DNA of 63,613 bases, counting the filler, from Candidatus Woesearchaeota archaeon (GTDB lineage Archaea; Nanobdellota; Nanobdellia; Woesearchaeales; BM511): NCBI GenBank assembly GCA_023266675.1. It is 4 parts of 4 records of this genome, joined end to end, with 100 filler letters (N's around TTAATTAATTAA, not from the genome) between each part and the next. Parts side by side here need not be neighbours in the genome. Positions count along the whole stretch, not along the records: positions 1 to 20,465 come from JAHFPP010000019.1; 3 more parts are not named here. One strand, given 5' to 3'. The stretch's first letter is position 1; every line of letters starts with the position of its first letter. Below, one piece after another: positions 6,879-16,792 of the stretch. The notes beneath the pieces are model-generated. The model searched no databases. It was not told where the DNA came from and was given only the letters and a program-made list of their open reading frames with translations. The position numbers were made by a program, and so were the translations under genes.

Positions 6879-7678
6879 TCTAGCGGACTTTTTATATTCT
6901 CAAATCTTCTTGTGTCCATATTTATGTATGCTTTTCTTGTTGTCTCAATATTTGAATGTCCTAAAAGCGCTGATATATCATGTAGAGGAACGCCGTTATT
7001 TAGAAGGTGAGTTGCGTAGCTTGCGCGAAGCATATGAGGATAAACATTTTTTTCTACACCTGCCTTTTTTGCTGCATTTATGATTATTAATTCTGCCGTC
7101 CTTATTGATATGTGTTTTCCTTTGTTATAGGATGATTCAAAGAGATAATCAGATACCTGATAATCTGAATAATCATTCAAAAACCTGTCTGAGAGTTTGA
7201 CAAACCTGTCTTTTTTTCCTTTTCCCTGCCGAATTATTGCTCCATTTTCTTTTTCTAAAATATCCTCTTTTCTTATCCTGACTGCTTCGCCGACTCGCAG
7301 GCCTGCAGAGTATATTAACTCAATCAAAAGCCGATGCTTAGAATTGGTAGTAACTTCAATCATCTTTATTATTTCTTCTCGCTTAAGTGTTTTTACGATC
7401 TTTTTTGGAAGACGCGATCGTGAAAAGTCTTTCATGATGTTTCTTTTCATTATTTTCCTGTAATATTTTGTAAGCGCGCTTATCGCAAGCCTTATTGTTG
7501 TTGGCTTTGCAGAATTCATATTAAGATGCAGAAGATATTTTCTCACATCTTCATTTGTCACCTGATGTGGCTTTTTTTTAGCAAACTCCAAGAATTTTTT
7601 GTTGTGATAAACATATGCATCAATTGATTTTTTACTGTCATTTTCTAAAATCATCTCTTCTCTTAACACTTCAAACAT
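6875..7678 (-). CDS. Tyrosine recombinase, integron-integrase-like
   Basis: Likely ATG 7678 after GGTGA RBS; SAM-like N-domain; catalytic R (GLRVGE), K (GKGKK), HMLR, LGH, Y; ends IKSPLD; adjoins a cassette array. Confidence 0.9.
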   Translation of the reverse strand: MFEVLREEMILENDSKKSIDAYVYHNKKFLEFAKKKPHQVTNEDVRKYLLHLNMNSAKPTTIRLAISALTKYYRKIMKRNIMKDFSRSRLPKKIVKTLKREEIIKMIEVTTNSKHRLLIELIYSAGLRVGEAVRIRKEDILEKENGAIIRQGKGKKDRFVKLSDRFLNDYSDYQVSDYLFESSYNKGKHISIRTAELIIINAAKKAGVEKNVYPHMLRASYATHLLNNGVPLHDISALLGHSNIETTRKAYINMDTRRFENIKSPLD

Positions 7679-7703
7679 TTTGTTTTCACCTTTTTTAAAT
7701 AGC

Positions 7704-7818
7704 GCTGCGGCCGGGATTTTCACCCAGGCAACAAGTATTGCGAGTAATTTGAACCCAGATACCCTTGTCGGGCAGTGGCGTATCAAACCACCGCGCTACC
7801 AGGTTACGCTACCGCAGC
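7704..7818 (-). tRNA. tRNA-like element (GAU/Ile anticodon) with 47-nt variable region
   Basis: Acceptor GCTGCGG/CCGCAGC, D-arm GCGT-AACCTGGTA-GCGC, anticodon arm GTGGT-TTGATAC-GCCAC, T-arm CTGGG-TGAAAAT-CCCGG; atypical T-loop and insert. Confidence 0.6.
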
Positions 7819-7904
7819 ATAATAATGAAAATATAATTTTCAAACTTTACTTTTCGGCAAAGTATCGACATAAGTTTTATATATTTGATAACACTAATAT
7901 GTAT

Positions 7905-7942
7905 TGGCGTATCAAACCATTGCATTACCGGTTATGTTACCG
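7905..7942 (-). repeat. Degenerate copy of the 5' half of the tRNA-like element
   Basis: TGGCGTATCAAACCA identical at 7776-7790 and 7905-7919; similarity continues through the D-arm. Confidence 0.65.
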
Positions 7943-8194
7943 GCTTTTTCTTTTTTTAATTCTGAAGAATCCATTTATATATCTCACGCGAGCATGTCCA
8001 GTGTCCAGTGAAGCACTTTGTCGTCGATAACTAGCTGTCCAGTGGATTAACATTTCTTCTGTTCTTATTCATTTTAGCCTCAAATTTCAAAGACTTTTGC
8101 AAAAAGCGTTCATTGTTTGTTCTGATTGAGAATCATAAACCAACATGAGCCCTTTGCAAAGTATGAGTTATAGAAAAAATTTGAGGTTATAAAA

Positions 8195-8413
8195 ATGAAT
8201 AAAGAAAAGATAAAAGGATTAATATCAATGTATGACATGTTATTTGACGACTATTCAAGGCAGATGCTTTGGGTATGCAATAAAGAGTTCTCACAAAGAA
8301 AAAAACGCGCTATATCGGCAGATATCACAGTAAGAATGTTCTTTAAGCTTCTCTATGCACACACCTACCTTATGGAAGAGGCGGAAGAAACAAAAACCCC
8401 AAAAGAAGTTTAG
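8195..8413 (+). CDS. Hypothetical 72-aa protein
   Basis: GAGGT RBS and ATG; no recognisable family. Confidence 0.5.
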   Translation: MNKEKIKGLISMYDMLFDDYSRQMLWVCNKEFSQRKKRAISADITVRMFFKLLYAHTYLMEEAEETKTPKEV

Positions 8414-8485
8414 GGCAGTTTTTATTTATAAAACTTGCGCACGCAGTAATTCACGACAAACATCAAAAACCTTCGTCTAATAGAT

Positions 8486-8492
8486 GTTAAGT
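8486..8492 (+). other. First crossover core site GTTAAGT (attI-like or half attC)
   Basis: Preceded by CTTCG...GA-TGTT like the right arms of downstream sites, but no matching left arm seen. Confidence 0.55.
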
Positions 8493-8513
8493 TCAATATT
8501 ACTCGGGGGCGAT

Positions 8514-8762
8514 TTAGAATTCACCACGAAATGTTGGTCCATGACATTTGGGGCATTTTACATCTCTATGTATATCTGCAGCGATGTTACAAAAAGGACA
8601 ATATCTTCCATCATCTTTTGTTAAATCTCCCAAAGATTCTCTAAGTTCTGATAACTTTGCGCAATCTTCTAATATCTGTTCTTTTGTACGATTTTTATCT
8701 CCAACATTTATTACCTCAAACCATGTAACACCATATGCAACGATTTCGTTTTGATTATTCAT
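8514..8762 (-). CDS. Cassette 1 gene: small Zn-ribbon protein
   Basis: CPFC...CPKC; TTTATATA box upstream. Confidence 0.75.
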   Translation of the reverse strand: MNNQNEIVAYGVTWFEVINVGDKNRTKEQILEDCAKLSELRESLGDLTKDDGRYCPFCNIAADIHRDVKCPKCHGPTFRGEF

Positions 8763-8870
8763 GAATTATAGAATGATTAAATATTATATAAAAAGATTAC
8801 TATTCTGCCCCCTGCGTCATACTCTGCGTCGCCTTCGGCTCCTTGTCTCGCCCACTTTGTAGGCTCAAGA

Positions 8871-8990
8871 ATATAACACGAATTTAGCGGTTCACTTCGG
8901 CTCGCCACTTTGAAGCTTCGCCTCCGTTCTCCCAAATCCTTTAATGTTGCTTCGCAACTTAAATGACATCGCTAAATTCGTATGTTTCTC
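8871..8990 (+). repeat. attC-like site 1
   Basis: AACA-CGAATTTAGCG ... CGCTAAATTCG-TA-TGTT; CCCAAAT at 8931. Confidence 0.8.
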
Positions 8991-9268
8991 AAAATTTTTC
9001 GTCTCCTTTACAGCTTCGCAAAAATTATTTTATTCCGCCACCTTCGTTAAATCTACCGACGAGAAGACAAACTAAGAAATTCCTTGCACTTCTTATAACA
9101 ATGATTTAACGGCTCGCTACGCTCAACCTAAATTTTTTCTTATCAACACGGAAATCAGGGGTAAACTTAATAAAGTACTATTTTTGAACATAACCTTTAT
9201 ATACCAGTATTACATTCCCATAATAAGGGAATAGTGGAGTACTATACCTTATACAAATTATAAGCAAG

Positions 9269-10033
9269 GTGAATGATATGGATGGCTCTGTAATGCTCAA
9301 CAAACTGGATGAATTTATGTCTACACAGGTTAGAAAGGATGTGCTTAAATGTTATGTTATAAAAGATTCTTCCCAATCAGATGTAGTCACCTGCCTAGAT
9401 AAAATGAAACCCCAATATGGTTCAACTTCTACTGTAGATAGAATTACTTCCAGCTTAAATTATATAGGTATAATTGACAAAGAAGATATAAAAGAAAATA
9501 AGCAATATTACCGCGTTAATTGGCATATTTGGATACAAGAAACATTAAAATCACTTGGATTAAAAAATGTTTCTGAAGAAAAGGTTGCAGAGATTGAGAA
9601 ATTAGTTTCAGACAAAAAAATGATTGCCTTCTATTTTGCATTAACTTCTGAAGACGTATTAAAAACTATATGGCAGGAAAAACTGGATAAGGTTACCCTT
9701 AAAGAGCTTAAAAAAGAAGGGATACAACCGGAGATATTTTTGAATTATATGATTAAACAGGGACCTGGCATCAGTCACTTACCATTTTTCTTCATTTTAT
9801 CAGGGAATCCAATGGCAAAATTATGGGCTAAGGATATGAAAGATACCAAAAAAACTAAAGAAAAATCGTTTATTAAAGCTTTAAATGATGCTATTTTGAA
9901 AGATCCTGCAAAAGAAGTCCTTGAAAAATTCGATGACAAAGTCCTGAAAGAGATAATTGATAATATGAGAAAAATAGAGGAGGCAACAAAAAAACTATTT
10001 ATTGAACAGCTAAAAGAACAAATGAAATCATAA
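9269..10033 (+). CDS. Cassette 2 gene: hypothetical protein, possible N-terminal winged helix
   Basis: Long ORF; TVDRITSSLNYIGII...YYRVN resembles wHTH. Confidence 0.65.
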   Translation: MNDMDGSVMLNKLDEFMSTQVRKDVLKCYVIKDSSQSDVVTCLDKMKPQYGSTSTVDRITSSLNYIGIIDKEDIKENKQYYRVNWHIWIQETLKSLGLKNVSEEKVAEIEKLVSDKKMIAFYFALTSEDVLKTIWQEKLDKVTLKELKKEGIQPEIFLNYMIKQGPGISHLPFFFILSGNPMAKLWAKDMKDTKKTKEKSFIKALNDAILKDPAKEVLEKFDDKVLKEIIDNMRKIEEATKKLFIEQLKEQMKS

Positions 10034-10159
10034 TTAAGTACTTAGCACGGAACAATTCCCATAAGAAGAACTGCCCCGCGTAAGCGTGTTACAACTTTTC
10101 TTTTTATTAGGGAGTATTTAAACTTTTTTGTTCTGCGCTAGTAACTTTAAAAAAATAAG

Positions 10160-10747
10160 GTGAAAGCAATGGAAAAACAAAAAATACAAGAAGTATTTTC
10201 CGAGCAGATAAAGCCGCAACTCGGAAGGATACATAAAGAAGAAAAATATCTGAATATAGTGTGGCAGTTAGCTGAAAATGCTTCAGCTAATGATGGAAAA
10301 GGATTGAGAGAAGCGCAACTCACAGATGAAGTAAAACCTGCGTCACAAGCTTTGAATCGGCTTGCAGATAAAGGATTTGTTGAAATTACTCTTCCTGTTG
10401 GAAACGGAACCTTACTTATTGACCCTATAAACAATAAAAGAGAACTTTTCAAAAAGCAGGAGATGATTGAAAGATATTTTACGAAGTTTAGACTGCATCT
10501 CGATAGTAGTCAAGAAGTACAACAAATAGCTATGGAAGTGCTACATCTTAATTCCGAACGCGAATTAAACCGATGGGCAGAGTCACTTGAAGAGCAAGAT
10601 AACTTTGAGCGATATAACCTTGTCGTTTTCAAATTACTTGAAAGAGGAATTGAAGTCGGAAAGCAATTTTATGGTCCAATGCACTGGCGGAAGATGAGTA
10701 AATTTTACAACATTTCTGAAAAGACAAAAACAATTCTTGAGGGATGA
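10160..10747 (+). CDS. Cassette 2 gene: hypothetical protein, possible winged helix
   Basis: SQALNRLADKGFVEI. Confidence 0.65.
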   Translation: MKAMEKQKIQEVFSEQIKPQLGRIHKEEKYLNIVWQLAENASANDGKGLREAQLTDEVKPASQALNRLADKGFVEITLPVGNGTLLIDPINNKRELFKKQEMIERYFTKFRLHLDSSQEVQQIAMEVLHLNSERELNRWAESLEEQDNFERYNLVVFKLLERGIEVGKQFYGPMHWRKMSKFYNISEKTKTILEG

Positions 10748-10938
10748 ACATGACAAAATTTATCTCACGAAGAAATACAAATGTCGATTTTAGCTTTATT
10801 GCAAAAAATCCTGCAACAATCTTAATTGCAGGAGGCGTTCTTTTTTTGTTGATTGGCAAAGAATTATGGGGAGTATTACTCATTATATTAGGAGTAGTGC
10901 TTCACTTAATATGGTTAAAAGGAAAAGGGAGGATATAA
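10744..10938 (+). CDS. Cassette 2 gene: small 2-TM membrane protein
   Basis: Hydrophobic hairpin; ATGA overlap with upstream gene. Confidence 0.65.
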   Translation: MNMTKFISRRNTNVDFSFIAKNPATILIAGGVLFLLIGKELWGVLLIILGVVLHLIWLKGKGRI

Positions 10939-10939
10939 A

Positions 10940-11263
10940 ATGTTAAGCCTAATAGACACATGGATAAAAGCGACGGTTGAACATAGAATACTGAATATTG
11001 AGTATTTTAGCCACACAAAACAAGAGTATACTAAAAGAGATATTGAACCTGATTTTATAGGACCTTCCAGAGATGGAAGAAATAATGGAATATGGGCTAC
11101 ATTTTGTCATCTAAGAAACGAAGGCCCAAGATGTTTTCAACCACATTCTGTAAAGCATTTTTCCATTACTGAAAAAAGCTTTTCTCCTTCACCATTAGGA
11201 AGATGGAAAGAACTGTTGCCATTGTATGAACAAAAAGGACTTAAAGAAAAAGAGTTTGGGTGA
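10940..11263 (+). CDS. Cassette 2 gene: stand-alone WYL-domain protein
   Basis: LNIEY...TKRDIEP...ATFCHLRNEGPRCF matches the WYL pattern. Confidence 0.7.
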   Translation: MLSLIDTWIKATVEHRILNIEYFSHTKQEYTKRDIEPDFIGPSRDGRNNGIWATFCHLRNEGPRCFQPHSVKHFSITEKSFSPSPLGRWKELLPLYEQKGLKEKEFG

Positions 11264-11269
11264 ATTAAA

Positions 11270-11974
11270 ATGAAACTCAAACCCCTCTTTTTATGCTTCT
11301 TGTTAATGAGCACAGTATTGTTTAGTGCATGTACACAACAACAAATTACAGATACAACTGGACAAGTAATTGCATCCGGAAAGAAAATGCTTGATGACAC
11401 CAAGAATTTCGTGTCTAACGAAAGTGCAAGAGATGAAACAAAGATAAGTATGGCTAGTGGAATTGCCGAGTTTGCGACTAACTCCAATATAAAAAAAATA
11501 GAAAAAATTGAAACTTATCAACAATATATTGCAATGGCAGATAACTTAAATTTCGTAATTGATGTTATCAATAAAAAAACAGATGCGAACATAAAACAAA
11601 TATCCAAAGGAGTAGAGGACTGGAACAAATTTAATATGGAAGCTACGCGTTACGCACCTCTTTTTGAAAACTATAATAGTTTAGTGGACAGTTGTTACGC
11701 ATTTGATAAAAACAATGAAAAATCTGCTAACCTAGTATTAATAAAGTCAAGCAGCTTTACTGCAGAAGCGTTATTAATTTTAGGAACTGCATTTTATAAA
11801 ACTGCATTTTTTGCCACAGGGAAAATTGCTGAAGCCACAGGGATAACAAAACTGGCATCCGTATGTGATTCCTGTGTATCTTCAGCTATGAGTGCAGGCC
11901 ATTGGACTATACGTAATGGAATGATTGAAAAAACCACTGAATTTGCTGAAAATATTACATTAGCAAATACTTGA
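11270..11974 (+). CDS. Cassette 2 gene: lipoprotein
   Basis: Signal peptide with FSAC lipobox. Confidence 0.7.
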   Translation: MKLKPLFLCFLLMSTVLFSACTQQQITDTTGQVIASGKKMLDDTKNFVSNESARDETKISMASGIAEFATNSNIKKIEKIETYQQYIAMADNLNFVIDVINKKTDANIKQISKGVEDWNKFNMEATRYAPLFENYNSLVDSCYAFDKNNEKSANLVLIKSSSFTAEALLILGTAFYKTAFFATGKIAEATGITKLASVCDSCVSSAMSAGHWTIRNGMIEKTTEFAENITLANT

Positions 11975-12111
11975 ATTATTATAACTACCCCTGATTTCCT
12001 ATACAATGCTTCGCATGATATTTTTTATGGTTGATAAGAAAAAACTACGGCGGCGGAATAATTTTTGGAGACGAAAAACTCAAGCCCTCGCCACTTACGT
12101 AGCTTCGGGTC

Positions 12112-12250
12112 GAGAAACAAGCGTTAAGCGGTTCGTTTCGCTTGTCCACTTCGTAGCCTTCGCTTCACTCACCCAAATTTGATTTCAACTCTGAATTGCG
12201 GTGTACCTCAATTCGAGGAAATCAAACTTCGCTTAACGCTGATGTTAAAT
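12112..12250 (+). repeat. attC-like site 2
   Basis: AACA-AGCGTTAAGCG ... CGCTTAACGCT-GA-TGTT; CCCAAAT at 12172. Confidence 0.85.
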
Positions 12251-12266
12251 ACAATAAATGCATTTC

Positions 12267-12599
12267 CTATTTACGTGGCTTGGCAACATCAAAAGATCCC
12301 ATAATCTGCTCACGAGTTTTTTCCCATGTCCCATATTTTCTGAGAATTAGATGTGCACATTCTTTTGTAAATATAATATATGCATAAATATCTGATTTTA
12401 CAAATCCGTCTGGGGAATCACTCGAATCAATCACTAAATAATAGTCCATTAAATCGTTATATTTATGGAATTTACGACCAGAATCTTCAAGTGCAAAAAT
12501 TCGGTATAGCTCATTAGCAGTCTGGATTTCAGCTTTAAATTTAAACCAAATAGAATCTTCACTAGAACTAATTCCTTTAATCAATGGTTTTGATGTCAT
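12267..12599 (-). CDS. Cassette 3 gene: hypothetical protein
   Basis: 110-aa ORF filling the cassette. Confidence 0.7.
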   Translation of the reverse strand: MTSKPLIKGISSSEDSIWFKFKAEIQTANELYRIFALEDSGRKFHKYNDLMDYYLVIDSSDSPDGFVKSDIYAYIIFTKECAHLILRKYGTWEKTREQIMGSFDVAKPRK

Positions 12600-12719
12600 A
12601 ATAAGCCAAGTAAATGTTTTAATTTATGTATTTTACGGAAATGCATTTACTTCTCCGCTCCTCGACTGCGGTCTGTGGTGCTCGACCACGTTGCACTCTC
12701 AGCCTGCGGGCTTCGGGGT

Positions 12720-12830
12720 ATTTAACAGCGATTACACGGCTCACTCCTTGCAGTCGTTCGACCCAAATTCCTCGCCTATCTTATAACTGAAATTTTGTGC
12801 GAGGAACTTCGTGTAATCGCGATGTTATGT
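12720..12830 (+). repeat. attC-like site 3
   Basis: AACA-GCGATTACACG ... CGTGTAATCGC-GA-TGTT; CCCAAAT at 12762. Confidence 0.85.
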
Positions 12831-12899
12831 GCAATATTACTCAGGGACAAATAAAATAATTTAGTAAACCTTTTATAGAAACTAATCTAAGTATAGATA

Positions 12900-13322
12900 A
12901 TGGAGAAGACAATCATGGGAATATTTTCTGATGGATGGTGGATATTCTCTCAAGGATTAGATGGATTGATTTATTTTTGGTATGTAACATTAATATTAGT
13001 TCTCATGCTTTGTCTTTCAATTTATTTGATGTATAGAAAAAAAATAAAATTTCCTAAAAAGAGATTATACTTTTTGTTATATCCACTTTTTTTACCAGTT
13101 ATCATTTCTTTATTAGGTTCGATATTTTATGATACTCAATATGCTGGTATTGGGTATTTACCTGTTTTTTTATTTTTTTCAGATTTTATTTATTCAGCTA
13201 TTCTAATATACAAATTCAAGGATTATAGATTATTTCTATTTTCATTTTTTGGTTTACTTATTTGGTTAACTTTCTGGGTTCTTTTTGTTGCTGGAATGTC
13301 AATTGCTAATGATTGGATGTAA
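12900..13322 (+). CDS. Cassette 4 gene: 4-TM membrane protein
   Basis: Hydrophobic ORF ending GMSIANDWM. Confidence 0.75.
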   Translation: MEKTIMGIFSDGWWIFSQGLDGLIYFWYVTLILVLMLCLSIYLMYRKKIKFPKKRLYFLLYPLFLPVIISLLGSIFYDTQYAGIGYLPVFLFFSDFIYSAILIYKFKDYRLFLFSFFGLLIWLTFWVLFVAGMSIANDWM

Positions 13323-16459: not shown

Positions 16460-16792
16460 ATGCCACTACTGCAATACCACTTAATTGCTGATGTACTTCT
16501 GATTTTTTTAATTTATATGTTTGATAAGGAAGTACAAAAGAATAAAAAATTATTCTTAAATGTATCAGCTGCTGTTATTCTCTCAAATTTGATTGACGTT
16601 GACCATTTACTGGCAACACCAATTTATGACTCACTGCGATGCAGCATTAATTTTCACCCGCTTCACAGCTGGTATTTTATGCCGTTATGGATAATTGGTG
16701 TGTTTAATAAAAACAAGTACATCAAATATTTTTGCAGTGGAGTGTTGCTACATTTATTGCTTGATTGGATTCAATGTTTATATTTTATGTGA
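16460..16792 (+). CDS. DUF6122-like membrane protein
   Basis: [25 protein letters not shown] signature. Confidence 0.7.
   Translation: [110 protein letters not shown]

Follow-up and report, generated by a model that had tools for sequence, protein, structure and literature searches.

An intron-containing class II tRNA gene of a serine-like family carries an isoleucine anticodon in a woesearchaeal genome

A 116-nt element in the genome of a Candidatus Woesearchaeota archaeon (order Woesearchaeales; assembly GCA_023266675.1) is in all probability, at roughly 80%, an intron-containing class II tRNA gene of a serine-like family, unrelated to the recombinase gene that follows it. The element lies at 7818..7703 on the minus strand of the window, by which we mean the whole stretch of DNA analyzed here: 63,613 nucleotides joined from parts of four records of the assembly. 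The family to which it belongs comprises serine-like class II tRNAs from one order of small-genome archaea, with anticodons (GAA, GAU, GAG, CAG, CAA, and others) that nearly all have A35. The intron alone would be ordinary for such archaea; the point of interest is the clash of tRNA identity, which is order-wide, multi-copy, nearly limited to middle-U codons, and tied to a co-varying companion copy upstream of the gene.

Results

When the whole window was searched with the Rfam tRNA model (RF00005), the 7818..7703 locus matched with 44.9 bits (gathering score 29, E 2.4e-06). A search with our own model, designated R1, gave 120.5 bits for the same gene, a score that should be read with the origin of the model in mind, as R1 was made from five intron-bearing paralogs and biases the search toward such hits. 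ARAGORN, run with default settings, called no tRNA in the unspliced gene. In the cmscan alignment, the anticodon arm is followed by a 44-nt insert containing CUGGGUUCAAAU and then by a T arm with a UGAAAAU loop; this alignment picks the wrong T arm. It is because of an intron in the T loop that ARAGORN misses these genes and Rfam misdraws them. The anticodon loop, UUGAUAC, places the anticodon GAU at 7784..7782, and the features of the gene and its surroundings are collected in Table 1.

Table 1. Features of the tRNA gene and of its immediate surroundings (positions in the window)
Feature	Position	Strand	Remarks
Tyrosine recombinase, XerA-like, 267 aa	6875..7678	-	Neighbor of the tRNA unit, not part of it
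Whole tRNA gene	7703..7818	-	116 nt; class II cloverleaf; one intron; last base G73; no encoded CCA
Exon 2	7703..7716	-	U60, T-stem 3' strand CCCGG, acceptor 3' strand CCGCAGC, discriminator G73
Intron, 31 nt	7717..7747	-	tRNA position 59/60; sole bulge-helix-bulge candidate common to all 5 paralogs
Exon 1 (tRNA nt 1-71)	7748..7818	-	Acceptor 5' strand, D arm, anticodon arm, variable arm, T-stem 5' strand, T-loop bases
T-loop bases UUCAAA	7753..7748	-	End of exon 1; bulge-helix-bulge scan
T-stem 5' strand CUGGG	7758..7754	-	In exon 1
Variable arm, 16 nt	7774..7759	-	Stem of 3-4 bp; class II
5' leader	7819..7865	-	Between promoter motif and tRNA; absent at C34, C66, C33
TATA-box promoter motif TATATAAAACTTATGTCG	7866..7883	-	Genome pattern scan; putative promoter
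Companion partial copy	7901..7944	-	Colinear with tRNA nt 1-43
Hairpin CCGGTTATGTTACCGG then CTTTTTCTTTTTTT	7928..7958	+	Terminator-like; on the minus strand, the A-rich tract before the copy
Second promoter-like module, CACTGGACA twice, then CGCGTGAGATATATAAA	7974..8010	-	Predicted to drive a sense transcript beginning at the A-rich tract

The cloverleaf is supported by comparison of five paralogs, in which both sides have changed in a compensatory manner in 10 of the 28 pairs and pairing is kept in 96.4% of cells, a result equalled by none of 500 shuffles; when the 3' partners were slid by 1-3 columns as a control, pairing fell to 38-50% of cells. The acceptor stem of the 7818..7703 tRNA has 7 bp and the T stem 5 bp, and the family retains the conserved tertiary bases U8, A14, G18G19, U33, UUCRA, and G53-C61. 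A shifted register that would give the anticodon UGA or GCU was rejected, as its alternative stems, checked by eye, are unpaired. All of the features described in an earlier note on this DNA are present in the sequence, on the minus strand, and its GAU anticodon was borne out, although several features prove to be something other than supposed. The 115-nt cloverleaf of that note is a cloverleaf of 116 nt, and its giant variable arm comprises a 16-nt class II arm, the 5' strand of the true T stem with its T loop (UUCAAA), and the 31-nt intron. Likewise, the second T-arm-like sequence seen there belongs to the true T arm, whereas the atypical TGAAAAT loop is intron. The fold CGACAAG/CUUGUUG, described for the 47-nt variable region, does exist as a 7-bp helix, but only in the 7818..7703 gene; the longest arm-to-intron helix in four paralogs has 4-5 bp and lies elsewhere. 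As it is unique to this copy, we rejected the helix as a functional element.

The 3' part of the intron, CUGGG-UGAA-AA, is a copy of the T-stem 5' strand, and within it UGAA forms a central helix with the T-loop bases UUCA (positions 54-57). The resulting bulge-helix-bulge has an outer helix of 5 bp, a central helix of 4 bp and two bulges of 3 nt, each with a splice site between AA and U. The inner helix has 1 bp in the 7818..7703 gene versus 4 bp in the paralogs on contigs C66 and C31, and the motif is thus of the relaxed form (h-B-H plus loop). Among related matches longer than 100 nt, 38 of 49 have the same bulge-helix-bulge, and the central helix has changed on both sides in relatives, from UUCA:UGAA to UUCG:CGAA. 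After in silico removal of the intron, ARAGORN calls tRNA-Ile(gat) with 85 nt plus an added CCA; across the set, it recognized three of 38 genes intact and 29 of 38 with the intron removed in silico. The genome also has a class I tRNA, at C73:6270-6409, with a T-loop intron of the same kind. The suggestion that the tRNA contains an intron was therefore right, although the intron does not span the entire 47-nt region but consists of 31 nt inside the T loop; the long arm stays. The bulge-helix-bulge motif, for which a search had been proposed, was found at position 59/60 and is shared by the five paralogs. No candidate motif confined to the variable hairpin was seen in any of the five, and the hairpin was accordingly rejected as a second intron.

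The genome encodes RNase P RNA and two proteins of the EndA family (PF01974), on C81 and C26, with 99 and 96 bits; two such genes fit a putative endonuclease of the two-subunit type, with a specificity that is likewise predicted. Maturation of the tRNA may be pictured as follows. Transcription would start from the TATA promoter, and RNase P would trim the 47-nt leader. The splicing endonuclease would then excise the 31-nt intron, with its cuts set by the T stem, the UUCA:UGAA helix, and the two 3-nt bulges. Exon ligation followed by CCA addition would yield an 85-nt class II tRNA with a 16-nt variable arm.

In its predicted mature form, the tRNA shows the traits of a serine tRNA, namely the long arm, G73, and G30-C40; its anticodon is nonetheless GAU, for the isoleucine codons AUC and AUU. 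Its anticodon loop ends with A37 C38. Six serine-like paralogs, with the anticodons GAU, GAA, and GAG, are present in the genome beside canonical tRNA-Ile(GAU) on C30, tRNA-Phe(GAA) on C77, and tRNA-Leu(GAG) on C52, all three of which have A73. Whether the genome holds another tRNA-Ile(GAU) had been raised in the earlier note, and the answer is the canonical copy at C30:2107-2201, which has a variable loop of 5 nt and A73 where the 7818..7703 gene has the 16-nt arm and G73. The best match of R1 outside the family is tRNA-Ser(UGA) of the same genome, with 52 bits, and no canonical tRNA-Leu appears among the R1 matches in this genome at E<=1. Across the order, we parsed 73 class II tRNAs, 31 with serine anticodons and 42 with others (GAA, 17; GAU, 10; GAG, 5; CAG, 4; CAA, 2; UAG, AAG, AAC, and GCC, one each). 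A35 is found in 40 of the 42 non-serine members and G73 in 41. The number of copies varies from 1 to 12 per genome, tandem arrays included, with 4-12 copies in genomes of about 1 Mb. By BLAST, relatives have isoleucine-like matches in 43 of 61 genomes and phenylalanine-like matches in 22 of 61.

A35 is the base read by class Ia synthetases, and seryl-tRNA synthetase (SerRS) is not known to recognize the anticodon; the A35 bias hints that some enzyme recognizes the anticodon. The class Ia reading of base 35 is shown in part in PMC9976931. According to the same source, G73 and G30-C40 rank among the strong identity elements of SerRS in bacteria and archaea, and G73 is an antideterminant for the leucyl-tRNA synthetase (LeuRS) of H. 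volcanii. The genome has one SerRS gene, at C1:38141-39388; a search of it for a dedicated enzyme found neither a second SerRS nor a LeuRS of the archaeal type, its LeuRS (C52:8323-11493) being bacterial-type (915 bits). Judged by the published identity rules, the tRNA would be loaded with serine irrespective of its anticodon, an outcome to which we give somewhat less than an even chance; loading with isoleucine or leucine, or the lack of any role in translation, may together share the remainder. Serine loading would place serine at very common isoleucine and phenylalanine codons. In yeast, the accumulation of engineered tRNA-Ser(GAA) or tRNA-Ser(GAU) is lethal (PMC6125640), which argues that tRNAs of this family are unserylated, are not used by the ribosome, or are tightly controlled.

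A different account holds that this gene specifies a genuine tRNA-Ile and the paralogs genuine tRNA-Phe and tRNA-Leu; all would have class II bodies in this lineage and act as extra acceptors, with synthetases that would recognize the anticodon and tolerate G73 and the long arm. Multiple copies would then serve the AUY and UUY codons, which are very common in this AT-rich genome; harmless decoding would account for the order-wide conservation, A37 is suited to reading codons that start with A, and both the near-uniform A35 and the retention of a multi-copy family in such small genomes agree with a use of the anticodon. Yet canonical class I tRNA-Ile and tRNA-Phe with A73 are already present in this genome and in many relatives, and a serine-like body would have to be accepted by three different enzymes. 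Moreover, archaeal tRNA-Phe requires A73 and G20 as listed in PMC9976931, and the family has neither, while its GAA members have A37 instead of the G37 of canonical tRNA-Phe. We regard a role as extra acceptor as unlikely.

The putative promoter motif of the gene occurs at five places in the genome, all of them family loci. It is placed 47 nt before the 7818..7703 tRNA instead of 7 nt; at C34, C66, and C33, the distance from the first T of the motif to the start of the tRNA is 25 nt. The stretch containing the leader is 94% identical over 67 nt to that of the paralog on C31 (blastn within the genome), and expression of the 7818..7703 copy could differ from that of others, given the 47-nt leader here and at C31 versus the tight spacing elsewhere. 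Searches of wider collections for the motif returned 62 metagenome and 29 genome loci, chance matches in unrelated organisms, none of which has a tRNA of the family type downstream. Contigs of the single metatranscriptome from the source sample, compared with the locus alongside three DNA runs, gave no RNA coverage, a result with no bearing on whether the gene is expressed.

Upstream of the promoter lies the companion, a partial copy of the tRNA in which the two parts have diverged unevenly. The acceptor and D part is approximately 64% identical and is reshaped into a perfect hairpin, CCGGU-AACAUA-ACCGG, whereas the 5' strand, loop, and 3' strand of the anticodon arm are identical at 15 of 15 positions; this exact 15-mer (7919..7905 versus 7790..7776) recurs with a spacing of 129. 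The degenerate 5'-half copy reported earlier about 130 bp upstream is therefore present, but it is not a product of decay, as it recurs at five paralogs. Indeed, a companion precedes the promoter in all five paralogs for which upstream sequence is available, with the same build at C31, C66, C34, and C33, and anticodon base 36 of the copy matches that of its own tRNA at each of five loci. In relatives, companions accompany mostly non-serine members. In a first set, whose anticodon labels were assigned by hand and whose related genomes are non-independent samples, the match to a gene's own upstream region scored at least 11 for 14/22 non-serine and 5/34 serine-anticodon genes (controls, 3/22 and 3/34); in a second set, matches were found for 13/23 and 1/11, respectively. 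Different genera share the A-rich tract, the hairpin, and the spacing from the TATA box. The companion is thus a conserved element that co-varies with the anticodon region of its own tRNA.

Our preferred, though tentative, reading of the companion is that it would specify a short antisense RNA, transcribed divergently, which would pair with the tRNA of its own locus. A scan for terminator-like sites found one, at 7928..7958 on the plus strand, versus a shuffle mean of 0.3, and this site resembles a terminator at which an antisense transcript of the copy would stop. Against the antisense reading, the CACTGGACA/TATA module upstream suggests that the copy would be transcribed in the sense direction. 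Genes of this genome are commonly preceded by the CACTGGACA...TATA motif, with an identical module before a protein gene on C13, and contigs from the DNA assembly of the source sample break at the module, which fits a repeat. Other roles for the copy fared worse. It was rejected as the 5' half of a split tRNA, since its first bases, GCCGGUA, and the acceptor 3' strand CCGCAGC are mismatched at positions 3 and 5, and no complementary leader or trailer was found for it (reverse-complement scores of 6-9). Complementarity of the copy to the tRNA or to the intron was likewise rejected, with reverse-complement scores of 6-9 that equal the control level. Among Rfam families, it matched CRISPR-DR62 alone, below threshold (22 bits versus a cut-off of 45).

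We also considered that the family might be a selfish or decaying repeat, composed of fast-duplicating tRNA-Ser pseudogenes, in which the half copies and the exon duplicate within the intron are functionless leftovers of target-site events or recombination. The widely varying copy number and the tandem arrays would suit such an origin, as would acceptor and D stems that are more diverse than those of the serine tRNAs. Similarly, the promoter-leader segment is 94% identical at two loci where the tRNAs themselves are more divergent, the upstream copies span differing parts of the tRNA in different genomes, and other tRNA genes of relatives have repeated pieces of their 3' ends downstream. However, compensatory changes keep the stems of the family, and its tertiary bases are kept. 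Nor would decay explain divergence so uneven within one copy (about 64% identity in the 5' part versus 100% in the anticodon part), the agreement of base 36 with the own tRNA at 5/5 loci, or the recurrence across genera of the A-rich tract, the hairpin, and the TATA distance. This explanation is accordingly improbable in our view.

The neighboring recombinase has Pfam matches to Phage_integrase (112 bits) and to a SAM-like N domain; its best NCBIfam match is XerA (NF040815), with 186 bits, below the cut-off of 220, over 5-261 of 263 positions. The genome has no other full-length copy, and the gene overlaps the end (stop) of the topoisomerase VI A gene. From the end of the tRNA at 7703 to the recombinase ATG at 7678, the gap is 24 nt by count (26 nt in the earlier note), on the same strand. 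Because no T run follows the tRNA, transcription of the tRNA may continue into the recombinase gene here. The arrangement is not conserved: among relatives, searches up to 1.5 kb from homologous recombinase genes recovered a tRNA at 0/20 loci with the Rfam model and 0/23 with our own, several of these loci being cut by contig ends, and the paralog loci on C78, C31, C34, and C66 lie among housekeeping genes, without a recombinase. No direct repeats of the tRNA bound an element here; the best distant repeat of its 3' end, at 16636-16659, is 75% identical over 24 nt, 8.9 kb away, and on the wrong side. The genes at 8195-13322 have no Pfam match above the curated cut-off.

The earlier note had offered the tRNA as the scar of an attachment site or as a tRNA-mimic leader of the integrase mRNA, and the short same-strand gap with no T run, together with the unmatched genes at 8195-13322, would agree with either; both are nonetheless highly improbable, given a sole recombinase whose best match is XerA, an overlap with topoisomerase VI A that leaves no space for the end of an element, the absence of bounding repeats and the weak, misplaced distant one, the lack of a recombinase at the other paralog loci, an upstream half copy that is present at all five paralogs with upstream sequence, and the relatives' recombinase loci, at 0/20 and 0/23 of which a tRNA was found, against a conserved leader. 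Thus, the recombinase adjoins the tRNA by chance. A normal tRNA-Ile conserved independently of the integrase had been named as one outcome that would undo these proposals; the tRNA is indeed conserved independently, but it is not a normal tRNA-Ile.

Discussion

In the literature searched, we found no report from Archaea of class II tRNAs bearing the anticodon of a class I amino acid, and in the excerpted parts of a 2024 review of mistranslation (PMC11415595), archaea are mentioned only for EF1A. If the tRNAs described here are serylated, an archaeal order has built-in mistranslators, from isoleucine, phenylalanine, and leucine to serine, that need control. If they are unserylated, the identity rules for serine fail in this lineage. 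Either outcome bears on the fidelity of tRNA identity and of the genetic code.

A more far-reaching possibility, which we regard as speculative and rather improbable, is that these are natural "toxic" tRNAs, loaded with serine and reading the most frequent hydrophobic codons (Phe UUY, Ile AUY, and Leu CUN), with each tRNA paired with its own antisense RNA. The antisense RNA would be transcribed divergently from the TATA box of the tRNA and would end at the hairpin and U tract (plus strand, approximately 7901-7958), and would keep the anticodon and variable arms masked. Together, the two would form an RNA-RNA toxin-antitoxin or abortive-infection-like module, in which the T-loop intron might serve as a second safeguard. 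If this were true, loss of the short-lived antisense RNA would lead to proteome-wide mistranslation of isoleucine, phenylalanine, and leucine codons as serine.

Several known systems share parts of this design. Non-canonical introns of archaea (Thermoproteales, ARMAN, and other DPANN) are likewise short introns outside position 37/38, excised by protein enzymes at relaxed bulge-helix-bulge motifs in which an exon-intron helix and 3-nt bulges define the cuts, and introns at position 59/60 are known from Thermoproteales. Such non-canonical introns are cut by two-subunit EndA (PMC5829648; PMC4033280). The introns described here differ in that they lie inside the T loop, where UUCA itself forms the central helix, hold a copy of the T-stem 5' strand, and are of a type that is near-universal in one tRNA class of the order.

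With regard to identity, the closest counterparts are the bacterial allo-tRNAs (Mukai et al. 2017, via PMC7609411), which also have a long arm, G73, and many non-serine anticodons, including those for isoleucine, leucine, and phenylalanine, and some of which have been linked to mobile elements or to toxin-antitoxin ideas (PMC7609411). The allo-tRNAs are bacterial and have acceptor/T stems of 8/4 or 9/3 bp, whereas the present family is archaeal and 7/5, and it differs further in its T-loop intron, its companion copy, and its near-restriction to anticodons with A35. The nev-tRNAs of nematodes are likewise class II tRNAs with class I anticodons, for example Ile(UAU), that exist beside canonical tRNAs; they are eukaryotic, of leucine identity, charged with leucine in vitro and expressed at low levels, unlike the G73-bearing, serine-type tRNAs found here (PMC3333845; PMC4033280). 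Within the genome itself, tRNA-Ser(UGA) at C12:1205-1288 shares with the 7818..7703 tRNA the D loop AAUCUGGUA, the design of the variable arm, the T loop UUCAAAU, and G73; the latter departs from it in having GAU, A37 C38 rather than A/G37 A38, the T-loop intron, and the upstream companion. Finally, the engineered yeast tRNA-Ser(GAA) and tRNA-Ser(GAU) combine the same serine body with a phenylalanine or isoleucine anticodon (PMC6125640); those tRNAs are man-made, whereas the combination found here is natural and conserved.

A class II tRNA with a T-loop intron

The cloverleaf with anticodon GAU that the earlier note had placed upstream of an integrase gene, on the same strand, was borne out by a 44.9-bit match to the Rfam tRNA model; ARAGORN with default settings found no tRNA in the whole window. 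In the cmscan alignment the acceptor stem, D arm and anticodon arm (loop UUGAUAC) are normal and are followed by a 44-nt insert, which contains CUGGGUUCAAAU, and by a T arm with the loop UGAAAAU. Both the insert and this loop had been noticed before. The loop looked atypical because the Rfam alignment and the first reading alike had paired the T-stem copy of an intron, to whose region the UGAA belongs, with the 3' strand of the T stem.

A blastn search of the region against the genome revealed four more genes of the same build, on contigs C78 (cut by the contig end), C31, C34 and C66, and a sixth paralog on C33 carries an extra insert. In all paralogs, a perfect 5' strand of the T stem and the T loop UUCAAAU are followed by about 30 nt, the 3' end of which repeats the T-stem 5' strand and adds UGAA-A-N, after which exon 2 resumes with U60 and the 3' strand. 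The search for a bulge-helix-bulge motif that had been proposed was run over every position pair in five paralogs and gave one candidate common to all, with A59 as the last base of exon 1, a central helix of UUCA (54-57) and UGAA, the 5-bp T stem as outer helix, and the bulges AA/U and AN/U. The inner helix has 4 bp in the C66 and C31 genes and only 1 bp in the window gene, which thus has a relaxed form of the motif.

When the window gene was spliced in silico, ARAGORN recognized an 85-nt tRNA with anticodon GAT. The same motif is present in 38 of the 49 related matches longer than 100 nt; ARAGORN accepted 3 of these 38 before intron removal and 29 after, and the remaining nine contain further introns. 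Some related matches change both sides of the central helix, with T loop UUCG facing CGAA, and an intron of this kind also interrupts a class I tRNA of the window genome (C73:6270-6409). The T-loop intron adds a member to the known class of archaeal non-canonical tRNA introns. Such introns are cut only by the two-subunit and epsilon-2 types of EndA, according to excerpts of PMC5829648 and PMC4033280; the window genome has two EndA-family genes, and the subunit type is one that we infer.

Splicing leaves a stretch of 16 nt between the anticodon and T stems (13-16 nt in the paralogs), which forms a small CCC/GGG hairpin, and the U directly before the T stem pairs with A15 in the usual manner. 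The all-pairs scan found no bulge-helix-bulge candidate confined to the variable hairpin in any of the five paralogs. The window gene is a class II tRNA: the suggestion of an intron-containing tRNA holds for the T loop, but the variable arm is retained. A CGACAAG/CUUGUUG helix reported earlier does join the variable arm to the intron, but in this copy only.

In a complete relative genome (G019, one contig of 1.3 Mb), the Rfam tRNA model finds only 14 tRNA genes, a count so low that interruptions must hide most tRNA genes of the order from standard models.

Features of the tRNA locus, and parts of the module upstream of the family genes in order
Feature	Position	Strand	Description
tRNA gene	7818..7703	(-)	Rfam tRNA model
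Intron	tRNA nt 72-102 = 7747..7717	(-)	bulge-helix-bulge scan
Partial upstream copy	7944..7901	(-)	44 nt, colinear with tRNA nt 1-43
Recombinase ATG	7678		24 nt past the last tRNA base
Module part 1			promoter-like CACTGGACA...TATATAAA; motif common before genes of the window genome
Module part 2			spacer of about 25 nt
Module part 3			A-rich tract
Module part 4			perfect 5-6 bp hairpin from the acceptor/D part
Module part 5			exact or near-exact copy of own tRNA's anticodon-stem 5' strand and loop
Module part 6			spacer of 15-20 nt
Module part 7			family-specific TATA motif, then tRNA

A serine-type body with non-serine anticodons

The family resembles tRNA-Ser in its D loop, arm design and G73 discriminator. 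For the covariance model of the five paralogs, the best non-family match in the genome is tRNA-Ser(UGA); the canonical tRNA-Leu there is not matched. The paralogs' anticodons are GAU (C57, the window gene's contig, and C34), GAA (C31, C66, C33) and GAG (C78). They coexist with a canonical set, all with A73: a class I tRNA-Ile(GAU) with a 37/38 intron on C30, which answers the earlier question of a second such gene, a class I tRNA-Phe(GAA) on C77 and a typical tRNA-Leu(GAG) on C52.

Among relatives of the same order, 73 of 116 distinct model matches were parsed, and these fall into two classes, 31 with serine anticodons and 42 with others (GAA 17, GAU 10, GAG 5, CAG 4, CAA 2, and UAG, AAG, AAC and GCC one each). 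G73 is present in 41 of the 42, and the anticodon loop of most non-serine members ends in A37 C38, as against A38 in serine tRNAs. Of 151 genomes sampled from the phylum, 38 have strong matches (E<=1e-12), 35 of these in the same order, and one genome has 12 members, partly in tandem. By BLAST, 43 of 61 relatives have canonical tRNA-Ile-like genes and 22 of 61 have tRNA-Phe-like 5' halves, family-bearing genomes included.

Excerpts of PMC9976931 describe G73 and G30-C40 as strong elements for the SerRS of Bacteria and Archaea, G73 as a block to the LeuRS of H. volcanii, and A73 and G20 as necessary in archaeal tRNA-Phe; under these rules, serylation of the family would be expected. We tentatively favor charging with serine, at a probability of about 45%. 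In yeast, engineered tRNA-Ser with a GAA or GAU anticodon is lethal on accumulation (PMC6125640, in part). Charging with the cognate amino acid or with leucine seems somewhat less likely, and a lack of any use in translation slightly less likely again. The genome encodes a single SerRS, and its LeuRS is of bacterial type; neither settles the identity.

Members in three relatives (L204, 922-1038; L223; L156) have C33 in place of the near-universal U33, in loops CCGAAAC and CCGAGAA. Some natural mistranslating tRNAs also lack U33, according to part of PMC11415595.

A conserved companion copy upstream

The half copy noted about 130 bp upstream exists, sharing an exact 15-mer with the tRNA at a distance of 129 nt, but it is not decayed. 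Its identity is uneven, about 64% over nt 1-27 and 15/15 over nt 29-43, and the same upstream module stands at all five paralogs that have upstream sequence, where base 36 of the anticodon always equals that of the partner tRNA. Relatives of other genera share the layout, with a copy that often spans the anticodon and variable arms. In a first set, a match score of at least 11 to the gene's own upstream region was found for 14 of 22 non-serine and 5 of 34 serine genes, several of the five being T-arm matches to a neighboring tRNA; upstream regions of other loci, used as controls, gave 3/22 and 3/34. Anticodons were labeled by hand in this set, which excluded L030, both L014 matches, C78 (no upstream sequence), the class I tRNA-Asp L169 and the A73 tRNA-Leu L173. 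A second set gave 13/23 and 1/11, after removal of 16 rows for which ARAGORN made no three-letter call and of one whose upstream sequence was too short; both sets are descriptive and not tests, the genomes being related and non-independent. From this recurrence, base-36 matching, shared layout and set counts, the copy is a conserved companion of this tRNA class.

The copy is identical, not complementary, to the tRNA, so pairing between the two would require antisense transcription. An antisense RNA that pairs with its own tRNA is a possible, still tentative function. On the plus strand the copy is directly followed by a hairpin and T run, the one terminator-like site in 7600-8100 (shuffle mean 0.3); its end lies 15-23 nt from a symmetric TATA box, the right spacing for a divergent start; tandem arrays have no separate promoter before the copy; and the A-rich tract beside it otherwise has no explanation on offer. 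The hypothetical RNA would pair most strongly with its own tRNA: the energies are -50 to -64 kcal/mol there, -16 to -49 with other family members and -16 to -33 with the canonical tRNAs of the genome, a preference that restates the sequence identity. Against such an RNA, the upstream module is an oriented promoter, found also before a protein gene on C13; transcription from it would run in the sense direction from the A tract. That the copy is a non-functional duplication relic is almost as likely as the antisense reading. A role as sense leader or decoy is somewhat less likely.

Across the genome, many unrelated genes have the motif CACTGGACA, often doubled, 12-20 nt ahead of their TATA boxes; in the window it occurs at 7993-8010 on the minus strand. 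The motif is likely to be a widely used promoter-upstream or factor-binding element. The promoter-leader segments at 7819-7885 and C31:6565-6631 are 94% identical and their tRNAs only about 80% alike, which suggests recent copying of the segment between the two loci. In a relative (L175, genome G048), a unit of about 58 nt starting with the tRNA's own 5' end (GCCAACGTGGCA...) forms about three tandem repeats 170 nt upstream of tRNA-Ser(GGA). At the relatives' loci L026, L032 and L029, the last 14-16 nt of intron-less tRNA-Ser genes recur two or three times downstream of the gene (+82 to +291), about 100 nt apart; these could be stacked attachment-site leftovers or something else.

The recombinase and the genome setting

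The neighboring 267-aa protein is a tyrosine recombinase whose best NCBIfam match is archaeal XerA (186 bits, full length, below the 220 cut-off). The genome has no other full-length copy; at its stop the gene overlaps the end of that for topoisomerase VI A, and homologs occur in 33 of 41 genomes searched. The adjacency to the tRNA is as first described, at a spacing of 24 rather than 26 nt. An association did not extend to relatives: no tRNA was found within 1.5 kb of the recombinase at 20 loci (Rfam, gathering score) or 23 loci (family model, E<=0.1), a partial view in that several loci end at contig breaks near the gene start. Four further paralog loci (C78, C31, C34, C66) have housekeeping flanks, such as AspRS and GluRS. 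The tRNA-"integrase" link is a chance neighborhood.

Many XerA-like homologs in relatives have a contig end at most a few hundred bases away on the 5' side, which points to repeated or variable DNA as a frequent upstream neighbor of this gene. Beside the tRNA unit, a run of ORFs without Pfam matches over the curated cut-off (8195-13322) could be mobile or lineage-specific DNA.

The genome (1.22 Mb, 83 contigs, 95.9% complete; GC about 30-40% over the window, which consists of contig C57 up to 20465 and, beyond it, of other contigs joined through N runs) is that of an archaeon, given its topoisomerase VI A and B, ABCE1-type protein, tRNA splicing endonuclease genes and archaeal RNase P RNA. It is probably one of the small-genome DPANN archaea, judging by gene content and the size of the genome. 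Window DNA was matched in a groundwater metagenome run. The AspRS (L001:343-2106, C78) has a GAD insertion domain, which is typical of bacterial AspRS, and the LeuRS (L225:324-3494, C52) matches a bacterial model at 915 bits and archaeal models in its C-terminal part.

Comparison with known systems

Full-text searches of the openly available main texts of papers found no description of such tRNAs in Archaea. As far as the cited excerpts go, a body of serine type that carries an anticodon for Ile, Phe or Leu has parallels in bacterial allo-tRNAs (PMC7609411) and nematode nev-tRNAs (PMC3333845, PMC4033280). The window family differs from both in its domain of life, 7/5 arm arrangement, near-restriction to A35, T-loop intron and companion copy.
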